The position numbers and the translations under genes are program-made. This document shows positions 4,223 through 22,712 of a stretch of 26,158 nt of DNA, piece after piece; positions within the stretch are counted from its first letter, which is position 1; each line of letters starts with the position of its first letter. Source of the stretch: a virus (lineage: Duplodnaviria; Caudoviricetes); IMG/VR virus record IMGVR_UViG_3300033489_000052, positions 1 through 26,158 of that record; one strand, 5' to 3'. The notes below the pieces were generated by a model. It was given only the letters and a program-made list of their open reading frames with translations. It was not told the origin of the DNA and made no database searches.

Positions 4223-5467
4223 TTAATTCGGTGTGTTGTATTTCTTCCAGACTTCGTCAGGGATGCCCATCATCTTATTGATGGACTTCTGGACTTCATC
4301 CATCCCGCCGTCTCTCGAGGGCGGCGCCGGGGGGATTCCGCCGATGGGGATCACGCTCCCTGCGGGCCTCGAAAGCACGATGATCTTGAACTGCTCCGGG
4401 CTTTTCAGCGCCAGGTCTCTTCCCCACTTGTCGAGTTCCTCCGGAGAAGTCTTCCCTTCCTTGAGAGCGAGCTGCACGAGATCGCCCTGCTTGATCTCCT
4501 GGAGCTGCTTTCTGAGATCGGCCACCTCGAGAGAGAGCGTCTTCGCCACATCGGCCGGCGCCTTGAATGACGCGACGATCTGAACGACCTCTTCCTTCGT
4601 CGCCTCCGGTTTTGCCCCGACTGCCTCGAGGACCTCTTTGCAGGCGACGATCATATCAAATGATTTAACTTTGTTGACGAGGAGCTGAACCGCCTCCTCC
4701 ACCTTTGCCTCGGTCCCGCCGTCGGCGGGACCAGTCAATCCCAAAAGTTCCATGAGCTTTTCAAACATAAGTTTTTCCTCCTTTCCTTTCTGTTGGCGAT
4801 CAATGTCAATATCCAAAAGCCTATCGGCTTCGAGCTTTGAAATGATCGGTCTAAGGTTATTGATCTTAGGAAAATTTGTGAGAGCCACATTCATCACCGC
4901 TACGATTCTTTTGTCCGATGGCCGGACGAGGATCACCGGGGAGAAGAACCGATATTCCCTGTTGGCGATATATTCGCTCGCCCGCTTCGTCCAATCGACT
5001 ACGACCCAAATTCCGTCCTTCCCCTTATTGATCATCTTTTTGATCCAACCTGCGGCCGGAGCTTCTCCGTCCCCGAGCGATTGATGTTCATAATCGATCA
5101 CCATGTCGTTTCCGCGGCGGGCCTGATACTGCAAAATCAATCTCGCGCTTTCCTCATCGATTAGGGCGGGCCCCTCACCCTCGATATCGATTTCGCCTTG
5201 AGGAAGAAGCTGAAATTCTCTTGGCGCATCGGAGGAGATTTCTTTCAAAATCAGAGCAGGATGCATTCTGTTTTTTGAAATCTCCACCCACTCATCGCCC
5301 TTCTTTTCGTATTTATTTTTTACCGCGGCCCAGGCCACTGCGAAGCATTTCTCCTCGTCGCCTTCATATTGCTCGAAGGCCGAGTTGAAAGCGGCCATGA
5401 AGATCTCCTGGCCGTGCTCTGGAAGGATTTTCACTGCATCGGGAAGTTCATTCAAATTCTTGTACAT
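4223..5467 (-). CDS. Mu gpI-like prohead protease/scaffold with N-terminal ChaB-like domain
   Basis: IDYEHQ, APAAGWI, WT..A..YI...EYRFFSPV and ALTN.P motifs. Residues 1-62 resemble ChaB. Confidence 0.92.
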   Translation of the reverse strand: MYKNLNELPDAVKILPEHGQEIFMAAFNSAFEQYEGDEEKCFAVAWAAVKNKYEKKGDEWVEISKNRMHPALILKEISSDAPREFQLLPQGEIDIEGEGPALIDEESARLILQYQARRGNDMVIDYEHQSLGDGEAPAAGWIKKMINKGKDGIWVVVDWTKRASEYIANREYRFFSPVILVRPSDKRIVAVMNVALTNFPKINNLRPIISKLEADRLLDIDIDRQQKGKEEKLMFEKLMELLGLTGPADGGTEAKVEEAVQLLVNKVKSFDMIVACKEVLEAVGAKPEATKEEVVQIVASFKAPADVAKTLSLEVADLRKQLQEIKQGDLVQLALKEGKTSPEELDKWGRDLALKSPEQFKIIVLSRPAGSVIPIGGIPPAPPSRDGGMDEVQKSINKMMGIPDEVWKKYNTPN

Positions 5468-5526
5468 GGTCTTTCTCCTGGATCGATTTTGATTGATAAT
5501 TGATAATTGCTAATTGACCTTGATCA

Positions 5527-5961
5527 TTATTTTTTTAATAAATAATCCGCCGCCGTCTCATTGATCTCCTTCCAGTCTTCGCCCTGGATCAGCATGTACG
5601 GCCTCGCCGGAATCGTAACCTTGCGTCCACGGCCTGCTTGGCCCCCGAAATGATGGATCGCCGCGTAGACGACATTGGTGCCGACAACGACCCTATCCGG
5701 GAAGGCCTGGACCTTGATCGATCTCTTCAATCTTCCCTTGTCGATCAACTTTATATCGCGTCCTTTTTTTGCCACGGTCGCCGGGCTGAGCCTGACCCAA
5801 CCCTGCGGTCTGCCGCCCGCCTCAAAATTTTTATTTATCGACGTGCGGATGGCCTGGCCGATGGTCTTCATCGCCGGCGTCATATTTTTCATCTTCGCCG
5901 AGAGCGCCGCCAGCGTCGCCTTCGCCATATCCGCATCAAGTCTCCAGATTAATTTGATCAT
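5527..5961 (-). CDS. Virion morphogenesis protein (Mu gpG-like)
   Basis: NF...GRP..W..LSP.T, VGTNVVYAAIHHFGG and IPARPY motifs. Start uncertain. Confidence 0.9.
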   Translation of the reverse strand: MIKLIWRLDADMAKATLAALSAKMKNMTPAMKTIGQAIRTSINKNFEAGGRPQGWVRLSPATVAKKGRDIKLIDKGRLKRSIKVQAFPDRVVVGTNVVYAAIHHFGGQAGRGRKVTIPARPYMLIQGEDWKEINETAADYLLKK

Positions 5962-6008
5962 TTATTTTTTTGCCTTTTATTGCTAATTGGTCATTGCCCA
6001 TTGATCTT

Positions 6009-6683
6009 TTATAACAGTCCTGCTGCCATTCCCAATTTCCCCGGGTTAAAATCCCATCCGGGATCGATCCCTTTTGGAACATCATGGACCTCGCCGGTCT
6101 CTTTATCAGTCCATTCATAAGTCTCTATTTTCGGAGAAGGCGATACGTTCAATCCCTCGCGCTCAACCTCTCTGCCAGAGAGGCTCACAACGCCTCACGT
6201 GCATCCCCAGCCATTCGGTGGGTAATGAGTATCCCACCACGGATCATCTGCAGGCAAAACCAGATTGTACCAAGGGATGTGTTCTTCTCTCGGCTCCCTG
6301 GCGTGAGATGGCACATATCTCCAGTACGGCCTTTCCTCCAGAACATCGGGATCGATCATCTGTTGGTAGTGCCCGGCGCTGTAAGCGACGCGGACATTCG
6401 TATCAAATATCAATTTGGATCTCGCCCCCTCGATTCCGTAGCCGAGAAGCGTATCGCCGATTATTTTCTTCCAATCCCCGAAGCTCATCCCTTCTTCGAT
6501 TGCTTTTGTAATCGATTTCTGAACGTCGGTAAGAGCATCTATGCCCGTCATGTTTGAAACCGAGAAGGCCCTGATGCGCGATTCCTTCGCCAGGTTCATA
6601 AACTCGTCCATCGTCATCGGGACCTTGTCTTTAAAAAAATCTATTGCTTCATCGAAGGGAAGCGGTCCCCATTCAACATCCAT
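6009..6683 (-). CDS. Mu gpF-like minor head protein with in-frame TGA (6195-6197), candidate selenocysteine
   Basis: PFDEAIDFF, IFDTNVR.AYSAG, RPYWRY and DDPWWDTHYPPNGWGC motifs. The frame continues after TGA for 61 codons, including GIDPGWDFNPGK, to TAA at 6009-6011. Start placed at ATG 6683 (GAGG upstream). Confidence 0.85.
6159..6193 (-). promoter_or_regulatory. Bacterial SECIS-like hairpin
   Basis: Directly 3' of the UGA: GCGUU-gug-AGCCUCUCU-GGC-AGAGAGGUU-g-AGCGC. The apical loop starts with G, 18 nt after the UGA. Confidence 0.65.
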
Positions 6684-6721
6684 AACAACCTCATCAATTC
6701 TCAATTTTCAATGGTCATTGG

Positions 6722-8311
6722 TCATTGCCCATTGATCTTTACTTCGATTCTCCCCAGAAGATTTGCAACAAAAAAGCTCCGCGCCATCATCTCTTTCATT
6801 TTTTCGAGATCGAGATCTTTAAACCGCTCAAGGATTTTCGCCTGGAGATCCTCAAGGCTTGTCGCCTCATCGATGATCGCCATCAACGAGTCGTGAAACT
6901 CCGAGATCCCGCCCTGCTCGAGGGAATTCTTAACAAGAGATTCGAGTTCGGAGTTCGGGGTCCGGAGTTCGGAGTTTTTGTTTTTGATTATTTTTTCTCC
7001 GTGTCTGATTTTCATTGCAAACGGATTCGCTGCCGGCGCCGGGGGCGCAAGCGCGGTCTCGCCTTTAGCCGGAAGAGGAATTTTGAATCTATCGGAAACA
7101 TGCTCCTGGCTTATGGGTTGCCCAAGGGCCGAAACATTCTTATAGACTTCGGAGAGGGTTTTTAAATCTTCGGATGGCTCATATTGGATTTTGAACCAGG
7201 GAAGGAGTTTGTCCCATCCGAAGTTCCATCCCACCAGAGGCCGAAACATCTGAAAGCGGATCGTCTTCGAAAGCGATTCCGAATCGCCCCGGGTCAAATC
7301 CTGTCGGACTTCGTTATGGACCTTGCCGAGCGCATAAGAGCCAGAATCGCCTTCCTGCGTCGTCAGGGTCTGGCCGAGAATCGCCTTGCTCATCTGCTTG
7401 TCGCAGAAATTGGCCAGCACATCGAAGACATTTTGAGTCCCGGTATTCTTCATTGTCTCGATGAATTCGATCTCCGTGTTCTTGGAGATGACGCCTGCCG
7501 CATCCGTTCCGAGCGATTGAATGGCTGCAATCAGGGACTCCTTATCTTCTTTGCTTGCCCCCGAATCATATTTCCCAAGGCGAAGAGGCATCCCAAAAAT
7601 TTCCGCGAAGGCGACCCAGTCCTTGATTGCGTAATTTTTGAAGAGATACATCCACGAGCAGACGCGCATGATGCCGGCTCTCGTGTCGTATCCCGAGCGG
7701 GCCTTATAGCGGTGATAGATGAGTTTAAACGGAGGCATAATCTCGCCGTTGATCTGCTCGGCTTCGGTGATGATCTTCGGCATCTCAAATGTTTTTTGCC
7801 AAATGCCTGCGGCGCCTCGATCGTAAAAGACCGCGCGCTTCTGGTGGATCCACGAAAGATCGGAGAGCACCACTTTGCCGCTCGCAAAATCATATATCGG
7901 CTCGATCATGGCAAAACCTTTTGGGATTGCGTCGAGAAGATCGAGCAGGGCGTCTTCGAATTTTGGAAGATTGTAGAGCACATCCTCCAGGAATTCGGCG
8001 ATCTTCTTATCCTCAGCGCTTTCGGAGTACGGCTGAATCTCATAATCAAACGAGAGCACCGCATTTTTTCTCTTCTGAAACTCGGCATTGAGATGTGTAT
8101 CCTTTTCCTCCATGTCTTCGAACAATTCAGATTGGCGGTAGACGTCCCCCTGGTCCGCCTCAACCAGGATCGAAGCGAGCTTTTCAGGGGTCAGGCCCTT
8201 CGAGGGATATTGCGACCAGCGGTCCCTGATTGCGGTGACGGCAATCTCCCTCATTTCGGGCTTCTTGCCCACCTGAATTTCACGCCCAAATTGATCAAAA
8301 AGAGTGTTCAT
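6722..8311 (-). CDS. Portal protein (DUF935 / Mu gp29 family)
   Basis: GLTPEKLASIL, LFEDMEEKD.H, EIFGMPLRLGKY, SKAILGQTLTT and GSYALGKVHNEVR motifs. Confidence 0.95.
   Translation of the reverse strand: MNTLFDQFGREIQVGKKPEMREIAVTAIRDRWSQYPSKGLTPEKLASILVEADQGDVYRQSELFEDMEEKDTHLNAEFQKRKNAVLSFDYEIQPYSESAEDKKIAEFLEDVLYNLPKFEDALLDLLDAIPKGFAMIEPIYDFASGKVVLSDLSWIHQKRAVFYDRGAAGIWQKTFEMPKIITEAEQINGEIMPPFKLIYHRYKARSGYDTRAGIMRVCSWMYLFKNYAIKDWVAFAEIFGMPLRLGKYDSGASKEDKESLIAAIQSLGTDAAGVISKNTEIEFIETMKNTGTQNVFDVLANFCDKQMSKAILGQTLTTQEGDSGSYALGKVHNEVRQDLTRGDSESLSKTIRFQMFRPLVGWNFGWDKLLPWFKIQYEPSEDLKTLSEVYKNVSALGQPISQEHVSDRFKIPLPAKGETALAPPAPAANPFAMKIRHGEKIIKNKNSELRTPNSELESLVKNSLEQGGISEFHDSLMAIIDEATSLEDLQAKILERFKDLDLEKMKEMMARSFFVANLLGRIEVKINGQ
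6944..6978. repeat. Heptamer tandem repeat (GAGTTCG)n inside the portal gene
   Basis: About five degenerate 7-mers encoding NSELRTPNSEL. Same family at 10035-10064 and 21254-21283. Confidence 0.8.
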
Positions 8312-13038: not shown

Positions 13039-13092
13039 GCCCTGCACCCAACATCGCGCAGGGCGAAGCCCCGCACCCAACGTGGTGCGGGG
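13039..13092. repeat. Two copies of the dispersed 26-bp hairpin element
   Basis: gccctgcacccaacatcgcgcagggc and gccccgcacccaacgtggtgcgggg. Confidence 0.8.
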
Positions 13093-13097
13093 AGAAC

Positions 13098-13143
13098 AAA
13101 AAAGCCCCTGGACTACCAAGAATCAATCGGCAATCCAGGGGCT
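13098..13143 (-). terminator. Intrinsic terminator-like structure upstream of the lysis/late genes
   Basis: Minus strand AGCCCCTGGA-21 nt-TCCAGGGGCT followed by TTTTTGTT. The loop is unusually long. Confidence 0.5.
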
Positions 13144-13226
13144 CAGCGGCCCTCTCTATTTTTATCACCAGGAGTCCCCTCGGGACTCAAGCGCTCAACT
13201 GGCGCTCACTGGCTTGGGTTCATCGT

Positions 13227-13451
13227 TCATCGTTTAACGTTCATTATTTCCGCGTTCTCCTTCTCGTAAATCAGCATCCTGATGTACGCCGAGAGCGTCA
13301 GGCCGAGTTTTTCGGCTTGCCGCTGGGCCATCGCTCTCTCTTTCTTCCCGAGCCGGATCGTAACGATTCCATCTTTTTTTTCCACTTCCAGCCGTTGCTT
13401 AGGATGCATTATAAATTCCTTAAATTTCTTAAGATATTTATCATAAATCAT
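13227..13451 (-). CDS. Ribbon-helix-helix/CopG-like DNA-binding protein, paralog 2
   Basis: VTIRL...AE..GLTLSAYIRMLI strand-helix-helix pattern. Confidence 0.75.
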   Translation of the reverse strand: MIYDKYLKKFKEFIMHPKQRLEVEKKDGIVTIRLGKKERAMAQRQAEKLGLTLSAYIRMLIYEKENAEIMNVKR

Positions 13452-13457
13452 TTCGTT

Positions 13458-13607
13458 CTACTCCTCACGGAATCCATTCTCCTTTTCATAGATCAGCATC
13501 CTAATATACGCCGAGAGTGTGAGGCCGCGCCTTTCGGCCTGTCGCAGGGCCATCGCCTTTTCTTTTTTCCCCAGCCGGATGTGTGCATCGGCCTTCTTTT
13601 TTTCCAT
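13458..13607 (-). CDS. Ribbon-helix-helix/CopG-like protein, paralog 1 (49 aa, not in the ORF track)
   Basis: MEKKKADAHIRLGKKEKAMALRQAERRGLTLSAYIRMLIYEKENGFREE, near-identical core to 13227-13451. Confidence 0.75.
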   Translation of the reverse strand: MEKKKADAHIRLGKKEKAMALRQAERRGLTLSAYIRMLIYEKENGFREE

Positions 13608-13619
13608 AATGATTCATAC

Positions 13620-13832
13620 TTACCACGATGTGGACATACTGTCAAGGGATTTTCTTTGCATGGCTGCATTGTTTCTTCTTTCGCTATCCCGGTGCATTTT
13701 GGCGACGTACCGGATCCATGCCGGGATGGCTACCACATTATGCTCGTCCGATCTAAAATGCTCCCGACACGATTCTTCTGAATCAAATTCTTGATCACAG
13801 CAAGCGCAGCGACAAAATGGCTTCGTTTTCAT
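13620..13832 (-). CDS. Small C2H2-type zinc-finger-like protein
   Basis: CACCDQEFDSEESCREHFRSDEH. Start ATG 13832 with GGGAGG upstream. Confidence 0.65.
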   Translation of the reverse strand: MKTKPFCRCACCDQEFDSEESCREHFRSDEHNVVAIPAWIRYVAKMHRDSERRNNAAMQRKSLDSMSTSW

Positions 13833-14038
13833 TTTCCACCTCCCAATGCCCTGAACCCGACGTGGTTCAAGGGTTGCACCATGCATCCCACGTGGTGCAT
13901 GGCGTGGTTCAAGGGTTGCACCATGCATCCTACGTGGTGCATGGCCCAGACGATTTCGAGCCTCCTGATGGCCCTGAGAGCCTCCAGGGCCAAGCCAGCC
14001 AGTCCTTCAATCTTAATTATTTTTCTTGTCGCCTTCAT
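13829..14038 (-). CDS. Possible small ORF whose C-terminal half is repeat-derived
   Basis: TAAGGAGG before ATG 14038 (MKATRKIIKIEG...). The stop overlaps the next ATG. Confidence 0.4.
   Translation of the reverse strand: MKATRKIIKIEGLAGLALEALRAIRRLEIVWAMHHVGCMVQPLNHAMHHVGCMVQPLNHVGFRALGGGK
13848..13945. repeat. Compound cluster of the 26-bp hairpin element with a 42-bp tandem duplication
   Basis: 13861-13902 and 13903-13944 are identical except for one base. Confidence 0.85.
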
Positions 14039-18403: not shown

Positions 18404-18610
18404 TCATGCTCCGGCTTTCATCATTCTTCCCCTTGCATCTCTTTTGAGGGGATATTTTATCTTCATTCTTTCTACGATCTTTTTACCCGTTTCTATCTTT
18501 ATGGGTGAGAACCGTATCATCATTATGGGTCGCAGCCGTAATCCCAGGGCCATTTCCCTTAATGCTTTCCCAAGCATGATTGATATTTTGTGATCCTTAG
18601 ACTTTTTCAT
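18404..18610 (-). CDS. Small basic hypothetical protein
   Basis: GGGAGG upstream; C-terminal RDARGR. Confidence 0.55.
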   Translation of the reverse strand: MKKSKDHKISIMLGKALREMALGLRLRPIMMIRFSPIKIETGKKIVERMKIKYPLKRDARGRMMKAGA

Positions 18611-18624
18611 TATTCATCCTCCCA

Positions 18625-18720
18625 GCCATGCACCCTGCGTGGTTCATGGGCACGCCATGCACCCTACGTGGTGCATGGCGTGGTGCAGGGCAAGCCCTGA
18701 ACCCTGCGTGGTTCATGGGC
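18625..18720. repeat. Compound cluster (three full and one half copy) of the 26-bp hairpin element
   Basis: gccatgcaccctgcgtggttcatgggc / gccatgcaccctacgtggtgcatggc / gtggtgcagggc / gccctgaaccctgcgtggttcatgggc. Confidence 0.85.
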
Positions 18721-18880
18721 GCTTCCCTTTCTGTCCCGGAAAACCACAGGCAATGTTTATTGTTTGCCTTTTCTCTTCCACGATCGCGGCGACAAATGGA
18801 CAGTCAAGACATTGGCCGATAGAAATTCTTCTCGGCTTCTTGGGCATCGGGCATATAAAGGTCTTTTTATTTCCTGGCAT
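18713..18880 (-). CDS. 55-aa Cys-containing protein, not in the ORF track
   Basis: MPGNKKTFICPMPKKPRRISIGQCLDCPF...IACGF. The Cys pattern resembles the upstream ORF. Confidence 0.55.
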   Translation of the reverse strand: MPGNKKTFICPMPKKPRRISIGQCLDCPFVAAIVEEKRQTINIACGFPGQKGKRP

Positions 18881-19082
18881 TGGGATCTCCGTAACTGCAT
18901 CTCAGTTTTCCGCCATCGGAAGTGAGCCACAAGCATTTCTGTTTATGACAGACCGTCACCGCGATCCTGGGATGCCCCTTCCTCATCGGACATGCGAGGT
19001 AATACCTAAGGTCATCCGTGCCCTGCACCCCATGTGGTGCAGGGTGCTCATTGTCCCTGCTCGCAGGTGCCTTCTGGTTCAT
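18867..19082 (-). CDS. Cys-containing hypothetical protein
   Basis: AAGGAG before ATG 19082; CPM...RI...C...C...C pattern. Contains a 26-bp hairpin copy at 19020-19045. Confidence 0.6.
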   Translation of the reverse strand: MNQKAPASRDNEHPAPHGVQGTDDLRYYLACPMRKGHPRIAVTVCHKQKCLWLTSDGGKLRCSYGDPNARK

Positions 19083-19096
19083 CGACAATGCTCCTT

Positions 19097-19444
19097 TTAT
19101 TTCCAAAATTCCCTCCATGATGTCGGGCCAAAAACCACGACCCCGATAATGGTTGCAAGGGCCGAAATTACCAGCGTCCAGCAGAGCCATTCGGTGGCGA
19201 CGGTCCAGTTAATTCGATTAATCATCTTCCGGAGTTTCCACAGCATCTTCACCATCATTAATCTGCGCTCAATCTCAATTCGTTTGATTTCCCTGTCTAA
19301 AATGCTGTCCGTATTTATTTGCTTTCTTGCTTCCAAATTAAGCCACCTTTCCCGGTGCTCCCGGACAATCGCCTCCGGAGTCGTGCGAATCGTTCCGTAA
19401 TTTCCTTTTTGTGGTCTTGCGTTTTCCATATCAAAATTTTCCAT
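19097..19444 (-). CDS. Hypothetical protein with C-terminal transmembrane helix
   Basis: GAGGAGG upstream; hydrophobic C-terminus. Confidence 0.6.
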   Translation of the reverse strand: MENFDMENARPQKGNYGTIRTTPEAIVREHRERWLNLEARKQINTDSILDREIKRIEIERRLMMVKMLWKLRKMINRINWTVATEWLCWTLVISALATIIGVVVFGPTSWREFWK

Positions 19445-19463
19445 GAGTTCCTCCTCTCCTTTA

Positions 19464-19489
19464 GCCCTGAACTCTACGTAGTTCAGGGC
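19464..19489. repeat. 26-bp hairpin element
   Basis: gccctgaact-ctacgt-agttcagggc. Confidence 0.85.
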
Positions 19490-19495
19490 GTTTCG

Positions 19496-20746
19496 CTAAA
19501 TAGACATGACGACCTCTTCCGTCACCTTTGCTTCGCCCATATCTGTCGCCAGGTTCATCGCCTTAGCCGCATAGTTATTGACGAGGAGCGGGTAGGCGTG
19601 AGAGATGGTTTTATTCTGCCGGTCCTTCGATGTCAGCCGTTTTGCCAGGGCGCCCAGGGCGCCATTGTCAAAAATTTTGTCCATCTCTGAACCGACACGC
19701 TTAAACTTCAAATTCAAATATTCTTTAATATGACCATTCAGGCCGGAGATCTCGGCGATCTGGACCCGCCGGATAACCTCCCGCAGGTCCACGTGCTGTG
19801 CCTCGTTGAAGGCATATTTCAATTCTATCTGCCCCATCAAGATGATACCCAGGAGTTTCCGATACCCATCTTCCAGCTCGTAAAATCGTTTCAAATATTT
19901 GAGCACTTCAATCGGCAAATCATGCGCTTCTTCGATTATCAAGACGGATCGGTAATTCTGTTTCGAGCGCTCGAGCAGGAGCTTTTGCACCTGCCTGGCT
20001 TTTTGCTCCAGTTTTATTTTCGTTTTCTCTGAACTGATGTCCATGATGATGGCATCGCAGATCGATGCCGCGGTGACCTTTCTCTTGTCGATTATTTGAG
20101 GATAGATGACAAGCACATCGCCATCCTTCTGGAGTTGGATGACAACTTTTCTTCTTATGACGGATTTGCCCGATCCGACCTCTCCTATCACTGCCAGAAA
20201 TCCGCCATGCCGCGCACAGTCGAGCATGGCGGCCTCGATGTAGCGGTGCTCGTCGGACATATAGATATCGGAATCCTTTTCGATATCGTCGATAAATGGA
20301 TTTCTAAAAATCTTGAAATGCTTCATCGCCTCTGATGTGATCATTTCTACCTCCCAGTTGACGACGATCCGTAATGGATCGCCTTGAATAAATCCATGAT
20401 TTCTAAACCCGGCGGCAACTTTGGCCCCGAAGCCCGCCGGCATGACGTGTTTTTTCATCGGCGTACCCGTGGGCATCCAGACGTCGCTCGCCTCAAGGCC
20501 GCGCTCGATCAACCAGTGCATGGCCCTCTGGTTTTTGGAGATAAACTTTTCAATTCTCTTTTGAAAATCGTCTGACCTGGGCGGGATATATCCCCGGTTT
20601 AAAGTAAGACTGAATAATGGTCGGGAGACGTCCGCCACTTCTGATATCGCGGTCTGGTTGATGCCGCACTGCAAAATAAGTTCTTTTAAAACGATTGGAC
20701 TCTCAGGCATTTTGAATGCTTTTCGCCCCGCTACTCCGTTAGACAT
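19496..20746 (-). CDS. MuB-equivalent AAA+ ATPase (ExeA-like) with N-terminal HTH
   Basis: Walker A GEVGSGKS, Walker B LIIEEAH, ILMGQ.EL and EVIRR; follows the transposase. Confidence 0.9.
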   Translation of the reverse strand: MSNGVAGRKAFKMPESPIVLKELILQCGINQTAISEVADVSRPLFSLTLNRGYIPPRSDDFQKRIEKFISKNQRAMHWLIERGLEASDVWMPTGTPMKKHVMPAGFGAKVAAGFRNHGFIQGDPLRIVVNWEVEMITSEAMKHFKIFRNPFIDDIEKDSDIYMSDEHRYIEAAMLDCARHGGFLAVIGEVGSGKSVIRRKVVIQLQKDGDVLVIYPQIIDKRKVTAASICDAIIMDISSEKTKIKLEQKARQVQKLLLERSKQNYRSVLIIEEAHDLPIEVLKYLKRFYELEDGYRKLLGIILMGQIELKYAFNEAQHVDLREVIRRVQIAEISGLNGHIKEYLNLKFKRVGSEMDKIFDNGALGALAKRLTSKDRQNKTISHAYPLLVNNYAAKAMNLATDMGEAKVTEEVVMSI

Positions 20747-20766
20747 TCGGTTTCACCTCCCTCCTT

Positions 20767-20792
20767 GCCCTGAACCCTACGTGGTTCGGGGT
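20767..20792. repeat. 26-bp hairpin element
   Basis: gccctgaaccctacgtggttcggggt. Confidence 0.85.
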
Positions 20793-20815
20793 CGCCATTG
20801 ATCATTGCCCATTGC

Positions 20816-20929
20816 CTATTGCCTTTTTCTCTTCTTCCATTCTCTTCTCAACAGAATGACGAGACAAAGGATACCCATGATCCCCAAAGCGGTTCCGACA
20901 ATGATCATATAAGCCTGCGCAAACGTCAT
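20816..20929 (-). CDS. 37-aa membrane peptide, not in the ORF track
   Basis: MTFAQAYMIIVGTALGIMGILCLVILLRREWKKRKRQ, starting 3 nt after the transposase stop. Confidence 0.55.
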   Translation of the reverse strand: MTFAQAYMIIVGTALGIMGILCLVILLRREWKKRKRQ

Positions 20930-22658: not shown

Positions 22659-22712
22659 GCCCTGAATCCTACTTGCCCCGCATCCTACGTGGTGCGGGGT
22701 GTGGTTCAGGGC
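22659..22712. repeat. Nested pair of 26-bp hairpin elements
   Basis: gccctgaatcctac [tt gccccgcatcctacgtggtgcggggt] gtggttcagggc. Confidence 0.85.

Follow-up and report, generated by a model that had tools for sequence, protein, structure and literature searches.

The window, by which we mean the whole stretch of DNA analyzed (26,158 bases), is an entire virus contig of a Mu-like phage and carries no host DNA. Its minus strand encodes integrase-type, AAA, GemA, amidase, terminase, portal, gpF, gpG, gpI protease, and gpT capsid proteins (Table 1), and no tRNA genes were found within it. Many of these genes, including those for the portal and terminase, are terminated by TGA at their expected lengths, which points to the standard genetic code. 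The named relatives of the portal are few and mixed (Syntrophales, Victivallales, and Pseudomonadota), so no host could be assigned from this protein.

The gpF gene is interrupted by a TGA codon. On the minus strand, its frame runs from an ATG at 6683 through PPNGWG-C-T to TGA (6197-6195), continues as GVVSLSGREV, and ends with TAA at 6011-6009. A first-pass annotation had described this in-frame UGA with 61 open codons behind it, and the minus-strand frame agrees. The same annotation had placed the codon in a C-x-C motif typical of the family; the UGA column is indeed an invariant Cys in 111 full-length homologs. Counted from the ATG, the putative selenocysteine (Sec) is residue 163, and the P0001 numbering used below for R133, H136, C162, and C164 is one higher.

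Table 1. Position of genes and sequence features at the gpF locus
Feature	Position	Strand	Remarks	Basis
Mu gpI-like protease/scaffold gene	4223..5467	-	N-terminal ChaB domain	PF10123, PF06150
gpG-like virion morphogenesis gene	5527..5961	-	directly downstream of gpF	PF05069, TIGR01635
gpF/MuF minor head protein gene	6009..6683	-	224 codons from ATG if UGA encodes Sec	PF04233, PHROG 220
Post-UGA part of gpF	6009..6194	-	61 codons plus TAA, including GIDPGWDFNPGK; second half of predicted C-terminal domain	
SECIS-type hairpin	6159..6193	-	5-bp lower and 9-bp upper stem; loop GGC (6176-6174), 18 nt after UGA	
In-frame UGA	6195..6197	-	second Cys of C-x-C; likely selenocysteine codon	
TGC, first Cys of C-x-C	6201..6203	-	TGA in 25 other lineages	
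R-x-x-H motif (R133, H136)	6279..6290	-	invariant, as are the two Cys/Sec positions; His a candidate third metal ligand	
GAGG, likely ribosome-binding site	6689..6692	-	5 nt before gpF ATG	sequence
Mu-type portal gene	6722..8311	-	directly upstream of gpF	PF06074, E 3e-108

The assignment to the MuF family is clear. gpF matches PF04233 with an E value of 1e-15 (58.8 bits against a cut-off of 29.6); when it is read through the UGA, its residues 4-218 match PHROG 220 ("minor head protein and DNA pilot") with an E value of 9e-72. Full-length Cys-containing relatives are 224 aa long and 71-73% identical. The architecture is that of a short MuF protein: no C-terminal toxin domain was found, and no further Pfam domain matches the window gpF, which ends 61 residues after the site. 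No NCBIfam 20.0 model matches gpF.

The TGA is not an assembly error, since it is also present in run X1 (a possible source run), in contig X4 of another study, where it lies only 9 letters from the contig end, and in X5, a low-depth (2.8) contig of a diverged strain from a third study, with 15 differences in 148 letters. The concern that the codon might be unique to this assembly is thereby removed.

Several repeats lie between the genes of the window. One of 35 nt occurs on both sides of gpF (5975-6009 and 6706-6740) and again at 5488-5522, 850-884, and 20793-20827; the copy near 6694-6737 is matched by many unrelated contigs, which diverge beyond the match. There are also two families of REP-like, GC-rich, partly palindromic intergenic repeats, one of about 10 copies (13039-13957, 18608-19501, 20750-20791, and 22675-22712) and one of about 3 (1581-1639, 1852-1910, and 2827-2885).

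Exchange of Cys and UGA across lineages

We scanned sequence collections for the gpF motif with TAA, TAG, TGA, or TGG allowed at the Cys position. In IMG/VR, all 15 matches at the second Cys (site 2) were gpF genes with TGA, and 29 of the 30 matches at the first Cys (site 1) were gpF genes, all with TGA, two of them at both sites. Among 54 site 2 matches in metagenomes, 20 were gpF (the window itself, 18 with TGA, and 1 with TGG) and the other 34 were chance matches; in GTDB, one of 25 was gpF, with TGA. Many of these matches are the same contigs present in two collections. Across the four scans (two of IMG/VR and one each of metagenomes and GTDB), neither TAA nor TAG was found at a Cys site of a gpF gene. 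The stops in matches from three genomes (G081, G334, and G381) were rejected as lying off the Cys columns or outside the aligned motif, and a loose 27-nt pattern run over 209 genomes gave 34 matches that we read as chance.

Filtering for an open frame and motif context, followed by de-replication at 95% over the core, reduced 260 genes to 156 lineages: 116 CxC, 15 CxU (including the window), 23 UxC, and 2 UxU. The resulting 40 UGA lineages out of 156 do not represent a frequency, because UGA forms were sought on purpose. Less biased searches found TGA in 2 of 80 loci, and in another such search 7 of 120 proteins, the window's own included, ended at the motif, with the stop codon known for 2 of the 7. 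In the aligned part of the 40 UGA lineages, all 42 TGA codons fall on one or other of the Cys columns, and TGG codons number 390; this result owes something to how the genes were selected. The recurrent pairing of Cys with TGA in homologs, anticipated by the first-pass annotation, thus extends over 40 de-replicated lineages, with TGA as the only stop codon involved.

Several variants were seen along the way. A long gut MuF protein (L296) has Trp (TGG) at the second Cys. L125, L133, and L290 have two UGA codons (U-K-U), lying 27 and 21 nt from one shared hairpin. Among the portal relatives listed, 12 of 120 (P0153, P0165, P0173, P0208, and others) are 707-732 aa long and end in PP[YF]HP[HN]C; these are apparently portal-MuF fusions that keep the first Cys only. 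INPHARED phages gave 410 matches, all under 60% identity.

The sequence behind the UGA has been conserved as protein. Between the window and L115, the post-UGA parts are 77% identical, with a dN of 0.22, a dS of 1.9, and a dN/dS of 0.11, similar to the part upstream of the UGA (dN, 0.26; dS, 2.6). Among 15 UGA-UGA pairs, downstream dN/dS was at most 0.34 in 13, saturated in one, and near 1 in one. Judged by these substitution rates, the post-UGA part of gpF is under purifying selection, the opposite of what a nonfunctional downstream region would show.

The state of the site changes often. On a quick tree built with IQ-TREE from the 156 lineages, the distribution of Cys and Sec requires 24 changes, 9 of them forced by well-supported branches; the direction of change is not readable from this tree, and within-gene recombination may inflate the count. 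Pairs at about 90% identity can differ in state, as do L150 (CxU) and L001 (CxC), which are 89-93% identical, and one Desulfovibrio cluster contains both Cys and UGA forms. Because UGA can stand at the first Cys, the second, or both and often flips to Cys, Sec is optional.

The window gpF itself looks mosaic (window 6198-6420). Over residues 123-164 it shares 74-83% identity with six proteins from a different clade and 57-62% with its own closest relatives, and the flanks show the reverse pattern. Given this pattern, recombination may have placed the Sec codon beside a hairpin of the other lineage.

SECIS-type hairpins downstream of the UGA

The hairpin behind the window UGA is exactly as first described, with the upper stem AGCCUCUCU/AGAGAGGUU (6185-6177 and 6173-6165) closing a GGC loop 18 nt downstream. 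We compared it, in our own implementation rather than with bSECISearch, to a bacterial SECIS model whose constraints are given in PMC13188914: a loop of 3-9 nt, a stem of 4-16 bp, a G in loop position 1 or 2, a spacing of 16-37 nt, and a folding energy of -7.5 kcal/mol or lower. The window hairpin, with its GGC loop, 9-bp stem, and 18-nt spacing, conforms to this model.

The predicted folding energy is -18.4 kcal/mol over 48 nt; the upper stem alone gives -11.1. Relative to dinucleotide shuffles, the z score is -2.21 for the 48 nt and -0.97 to -1.45 in longer windows. Of 3,000 synonymous recodings, 0.5% had a SECIS-type stem of at least 9 bp and 0.9% were as stably folded, and by an ensemble measure, 4 of 60 recodings scored as well. 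When 17 further TGA stops of the window were tested, 2 were likewise followed by a SECIS-type hairpin, but their frames close after 3 and 4 codons; none of these 17 TGA-ended genes was a second Sec candidate. No Rfam family matches the window. By itself, then, the window hairpin is modestly above chance and suggestive rather than decisive.

The comparison across lineages is more telling. The ensemble measure reached at least 0.3 at 25 of 37 UGA sites; the corresponding counts for Cys sites were 13 of 62 and 6 of 62. We also ran a local scan requiring at least 5 contiguous pairs, G followed by G or U at loop positions 1-2, and a loop 16-37 nt downstream. Such a hairpin follows the site in 39 of the 40 UGA genes, compared with 10 of the 116 Cys genes, and at -7.5 kcal/mol the counts are 29 of 40 and 1 of 116; the scan was designed after the loops and the ensemble results had been seen, and these counts ignore kinship. 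A tree-aware test, underpowered at 9 independent pairs, gave means of 6.8 concordant and 1.1 discordant pairs (median P of 0.07). The loops in UGA genes are mostly C-GUG-A, C-GGG-N, GGC, or GUC, and the hairpins fall in several registers, pointing to repeated gain or loss.

Codon usage provides a view of the hairpin that does not depend on folding. In one clade of 16 UGA genes, the majority codon at the five hairpin codons has frequencies of 1.0, 1.0, 0.88, 1.0, and 1.0, an average of 0.98. By comparison, 70 other 4- or 6-fold codons average 0.57, and the hairpin is the most conserved synonymous 5-codon window of the gene. Among Cys relatives with the same residues at the hairpin, 4 of 4 had changed at least one codon synonymously, and one of them keeps the pair by wobble.

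Carrier genomes and probable decoding of the UGA

Some gpF genes with UGA lie in genomes that possess genes for Sec incorporation. A genome (G254) of the same phylum as the Desulfobacteraceae bin discussed next carries a UxC gpF together with selA, selB, and tRNA-Sec. The Desulfobacteraceae bin itself (G001) carries the CxU form L150 on a contig that continues into apparent host genes; selA and a TGA-bearing selD are present, and selB and tRNA-Sec were not found in this incomplete bin. Its selB-like match was rejected as EF-Tu and its tRNA-Sec-like matches as tRNA-Trp and tRNA-Ser. A third genome (G042) has selA, selB, and tRNA-Sec and a broken UxC gpF remnant (L260). The remnant retains an intact hairpin, and the genes beside it resemble cas1/cas2. 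The name of the gene adjoining another gpF (L145) comes from a Nitrospirota bin. Cys forms, too, often occur in genomes that have selA and selB (G078, G140, and G182), and so Sec confers no indispensable advantage.

Desulfovibrio, a genus that uses Sec, provides a cultured carrier of a UGA form. The gpF of L120, cut at its UGA, is the 166-aa protein WP_062252141.1 of Desulfovibrio fairfieldensis; its cluster has 47 members, and 12 of the 15 listed end at the same residue. The provirus was rated 100% complete, and a scan of 11 core genes gave the expected Pfam family for 10. In the D. fairfieldensis prophage (L370:17115-18263), the post-UGA part holds a PBECR2 nuclease-like domain, which readthrough would gate. 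BSepDB supplementary Table S1 lists D. fairfieldensis as a genome only, and we did not take this as evidence of Sec use.

We conclude that the gpF UGA is most likely decoded as selenocysteine by the host, with a probability of roughly 0.88. This reading is supported by the TGA-only pairing over 40 lineages, the hairpin, the purifying selection downstream, and the Sec genes in prophage-carrying genomes. Host decoding of a C-x-U motif, as the first-pass annotation had it, is therefore supported by the comparative tests, with the amendment that Sec is optional and can stand at either Cys or at both. In the mechanism we propose, host SelB would bind the hairpin loop and deliver Sec-tRNA at the UGA, yielding the full-length 224-residue gpF.

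The motif, alternative readings, and known systems

Residues 113-219 of gpF are modeled as a compact domain (pLDDT of 91) with the UGA in its middle. Termination there would remove half of this domain, and a working short isoform is therefore unlikely; in light of the model, the terminated product is probably junk, and the earlier suggestion of short and long isoforms finds little room. An alignment of 112 proteins shows no variation at R133, H136, P157, N158, C162, or C164. Only three of the invariant residues (H136, C162, and C164) are candidate ligands; at position 154, 28 of 156 have W, F, Y, or N instead of His. Sequence searches of the PDB found no relative of gpF, the sole profile match being a designed repeat protein. 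A fold search with the whole model gave no Foldseek match with an E value of 0.001 or lower and a best VIA Z of 5.4, and nothing clear emerged for the C-terminal domain (best Z of 3.2). Head-morphogenesis and minor-capsid proteins were among the named top BFVD matches to the model, and the Atlas returned only MuF clusters.

The MuF/gp7 domain occurs in about a third of tailed phages, and to our knowledge its function has not been assigned. Natural substitution by Sec marks the C-x-C pair as a reactive or metal-binding center. Because R133, H136, C162, C164, and the other conserved residues are invariant and Sec can replace the first Cys, the second, or both, we favor a His/Cys/Sec metal site, probably for zinc, over a redox pair, and would give it about an even chance on the strength of the alignment. 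In the window protein, the Cys-Thr-Sec sequence and the conserved His would probably bind the metal ion together. The other possibility, that the motif forms a selenenyl-sulfide or diselenide pair or a reactive nucleophile in head maturation or DNA ejection, seems doubtful to us. The single invariant His beside the Cys pair would suit it, and most known prokaryotic selenoproteins are redox proteins according to the accessible part of PMC13188914; however, the fold searches matched neither a thioredoxin-like fold nor that of any other enzyme, and Sec is found at either position, whereas a catalytic nucleophile would presumably keep to one.

The accessible parts of PMC5576092 and PMC6316719 describe SPP1 gp7 as portal-bound, present at 1-2 copies per capsid, and dispensable for assembly, with only ~25% of gp7-less virions infectious. 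The words "cysteine" and "zinc" are absent from the accessible text of PMC5576092, which describes no role for a C-x-C motif. By analogy with gp7, gpF would be packed into the head via the portal in one or two copies and help DNA delivery. With so few copies needed, inefficient or slow Sec insertion would cost little, and repeated exchange of Cys and Sec would be possible in phages of Sec-rich anaerobes; such cheap insertion fits the frequent switching.

The same low copy number would also suit a different purpose, in which Sec is inserted but its chemistry is minor and the UGA serves to throttle gpF copy number or to tie gpF to selenium, with the truncated form as a by-product or isoform. The frequent flips of state on the tree agree with this idea, as do the 10 of 40 UGA lineages with more than 150 residues after the UGA, among them the D. 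fairfieldensis prophage whose PBECR2 domain the UGA would gate. A throttle could sit anywhere in the gene, yet the UGA falls on two Cys columns, on both at once in 2 lineages, and the isoform version meets the difficulty of the halved domain. We consider this account unlikely.

Far less probable is that the UGA and hairpin are read through with insertion of cysteine, either by Cys charging under selenium shortage or by a SECIS-dependent UGA-reading Cys tRNA, which exists in some deltaproteobacteria. The inserted residue cannot be distinguished from sequence data, and Cys fully substitutes in relatives as close as L001 is to L150. The UCA-anticodon motif was found in two genomes, and in both the match is an ordinary tRNA-Sec (RF01852, 77.5 and 73.6 bits) accompanied by selA and selB; moreover, a costly recoding signal for Cys alone would have no reason to last in 40 lineages.

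A nonsense mutation, whether in a dispensable gene or in a decaying prophage, is already largely refuted as the origin of the TGA, and so is a sequencing error. TGC or TGT becomes TGA by a single change, gp7 is dispensable for SPP1 assembly, and one UGA copy (L260) does lie in a clearly broken remnant. TGG is also one step from TGT and TGC, and a nonsense change could strike any part of the gene, yet it is TGA, with hairpins, that recurs on the Cys columns; the downstream purifying selection, the presence of the codon in other studies, and the shared end point and complete provirus of the D. fairfieldensis cluster likewise speak against decay or error. An in-frame TGA within a conserved gene might suggest an alternative code that reads UGA as Trp or Gly, but this is refuted by the standard use of TGA as a stop in the window, the 390 TGG codons for Trp in the UGA genes, and the confinement of TGA to Cys columns.

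With Sec decoding as the preferred reading, a broader picture can be sketched, which we hold tentatively and at somewhat less than even odds. Selenium would be built into the virions of Mu-like phages of sulfate-reducing and syntrophic anaerobes; gpF would be a widespread family of phage selenoproteins in which Sec has repeatedly taken the place of either Cys of an overlooked metal site, and infectivity and, in long forms, delivery of the C-terminal nuclease would depend on host selenium. If gpF does use Sec, a core virion gene would show phages adapting to the expanded genetic code of their hosts, a non-enzyme family would join the selenoprotein catalog together with a selenium-containing phage particle protein, and "truncated" gpF database entries such as WP_062252141.1 (166 aa) would be explained. 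A cultured lysogen exists, which makes the question directly testable.

In the literature, we found no published phage selenoprotein by a full-text search with slight coverage of subscription journals. PF04233/MuF is absent from the 119 prokaryotic selenoprotein families in Table 1 of PMC13188914 (2026), and the accessible text of that paper does not contain the word "phage." Term searches for a MuF or phage selenoprotein found none in the main text and four supplements of PMC12013277 or in the main text of PMC9312934, and there was none in the accessible part of PMC13326102. PMC5512222, PMC3482391, and PMC11445458, in the parts accessible, offer at most background on MuF.

Among known systems, the closest are the bacterial selenoprotein genes with a SECIS element inside the reading frame. 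Like gpF, they have a UGA aligned to Cys and a hairpin 16-37 nt downstream with a G early in a loop of 3-9 nt, and they have carriers in Sec-using Desulfobacterota. Unlike them, gpF is phage-encoded and is not a captured host enzyme, and its Sec can stand at either or both positions of C-x-C, with hairpins in several registers. With the MuF1, Mu gpF, and SPP1 gp7 proteins (PF04233, PHROG 220), the window gpF shares the domain match, the place directly after the portal gene, and the short-MuF form; it differs by the UGA at a conserved Cys. Reliance on host Sec machinery by a virus has precedents in the glutathione peroxidases of molluscum contagiosum virus (GPX1-like) and fowlpox virus (GPX4-like), which the accessible text of PMC6769590 gives as the only proven viral selenoproteins in 2019. 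According to the same text, canarypox virus is a Cys-reverted relative with a leftover SECIS. Here, L003-type genes are the counterpart. The poxvirus cases are glutathione peroxidases acquired from eukaryotic hosts, with eukaryotic SECIS elements, whereas gpF is a core virion-assembly gene of a phage and its SECIS is of the bacterial type. The mechanism would thus be the known bacterial SECIS route, and the protein family and its setting, as far as could be seen, are apparently new.
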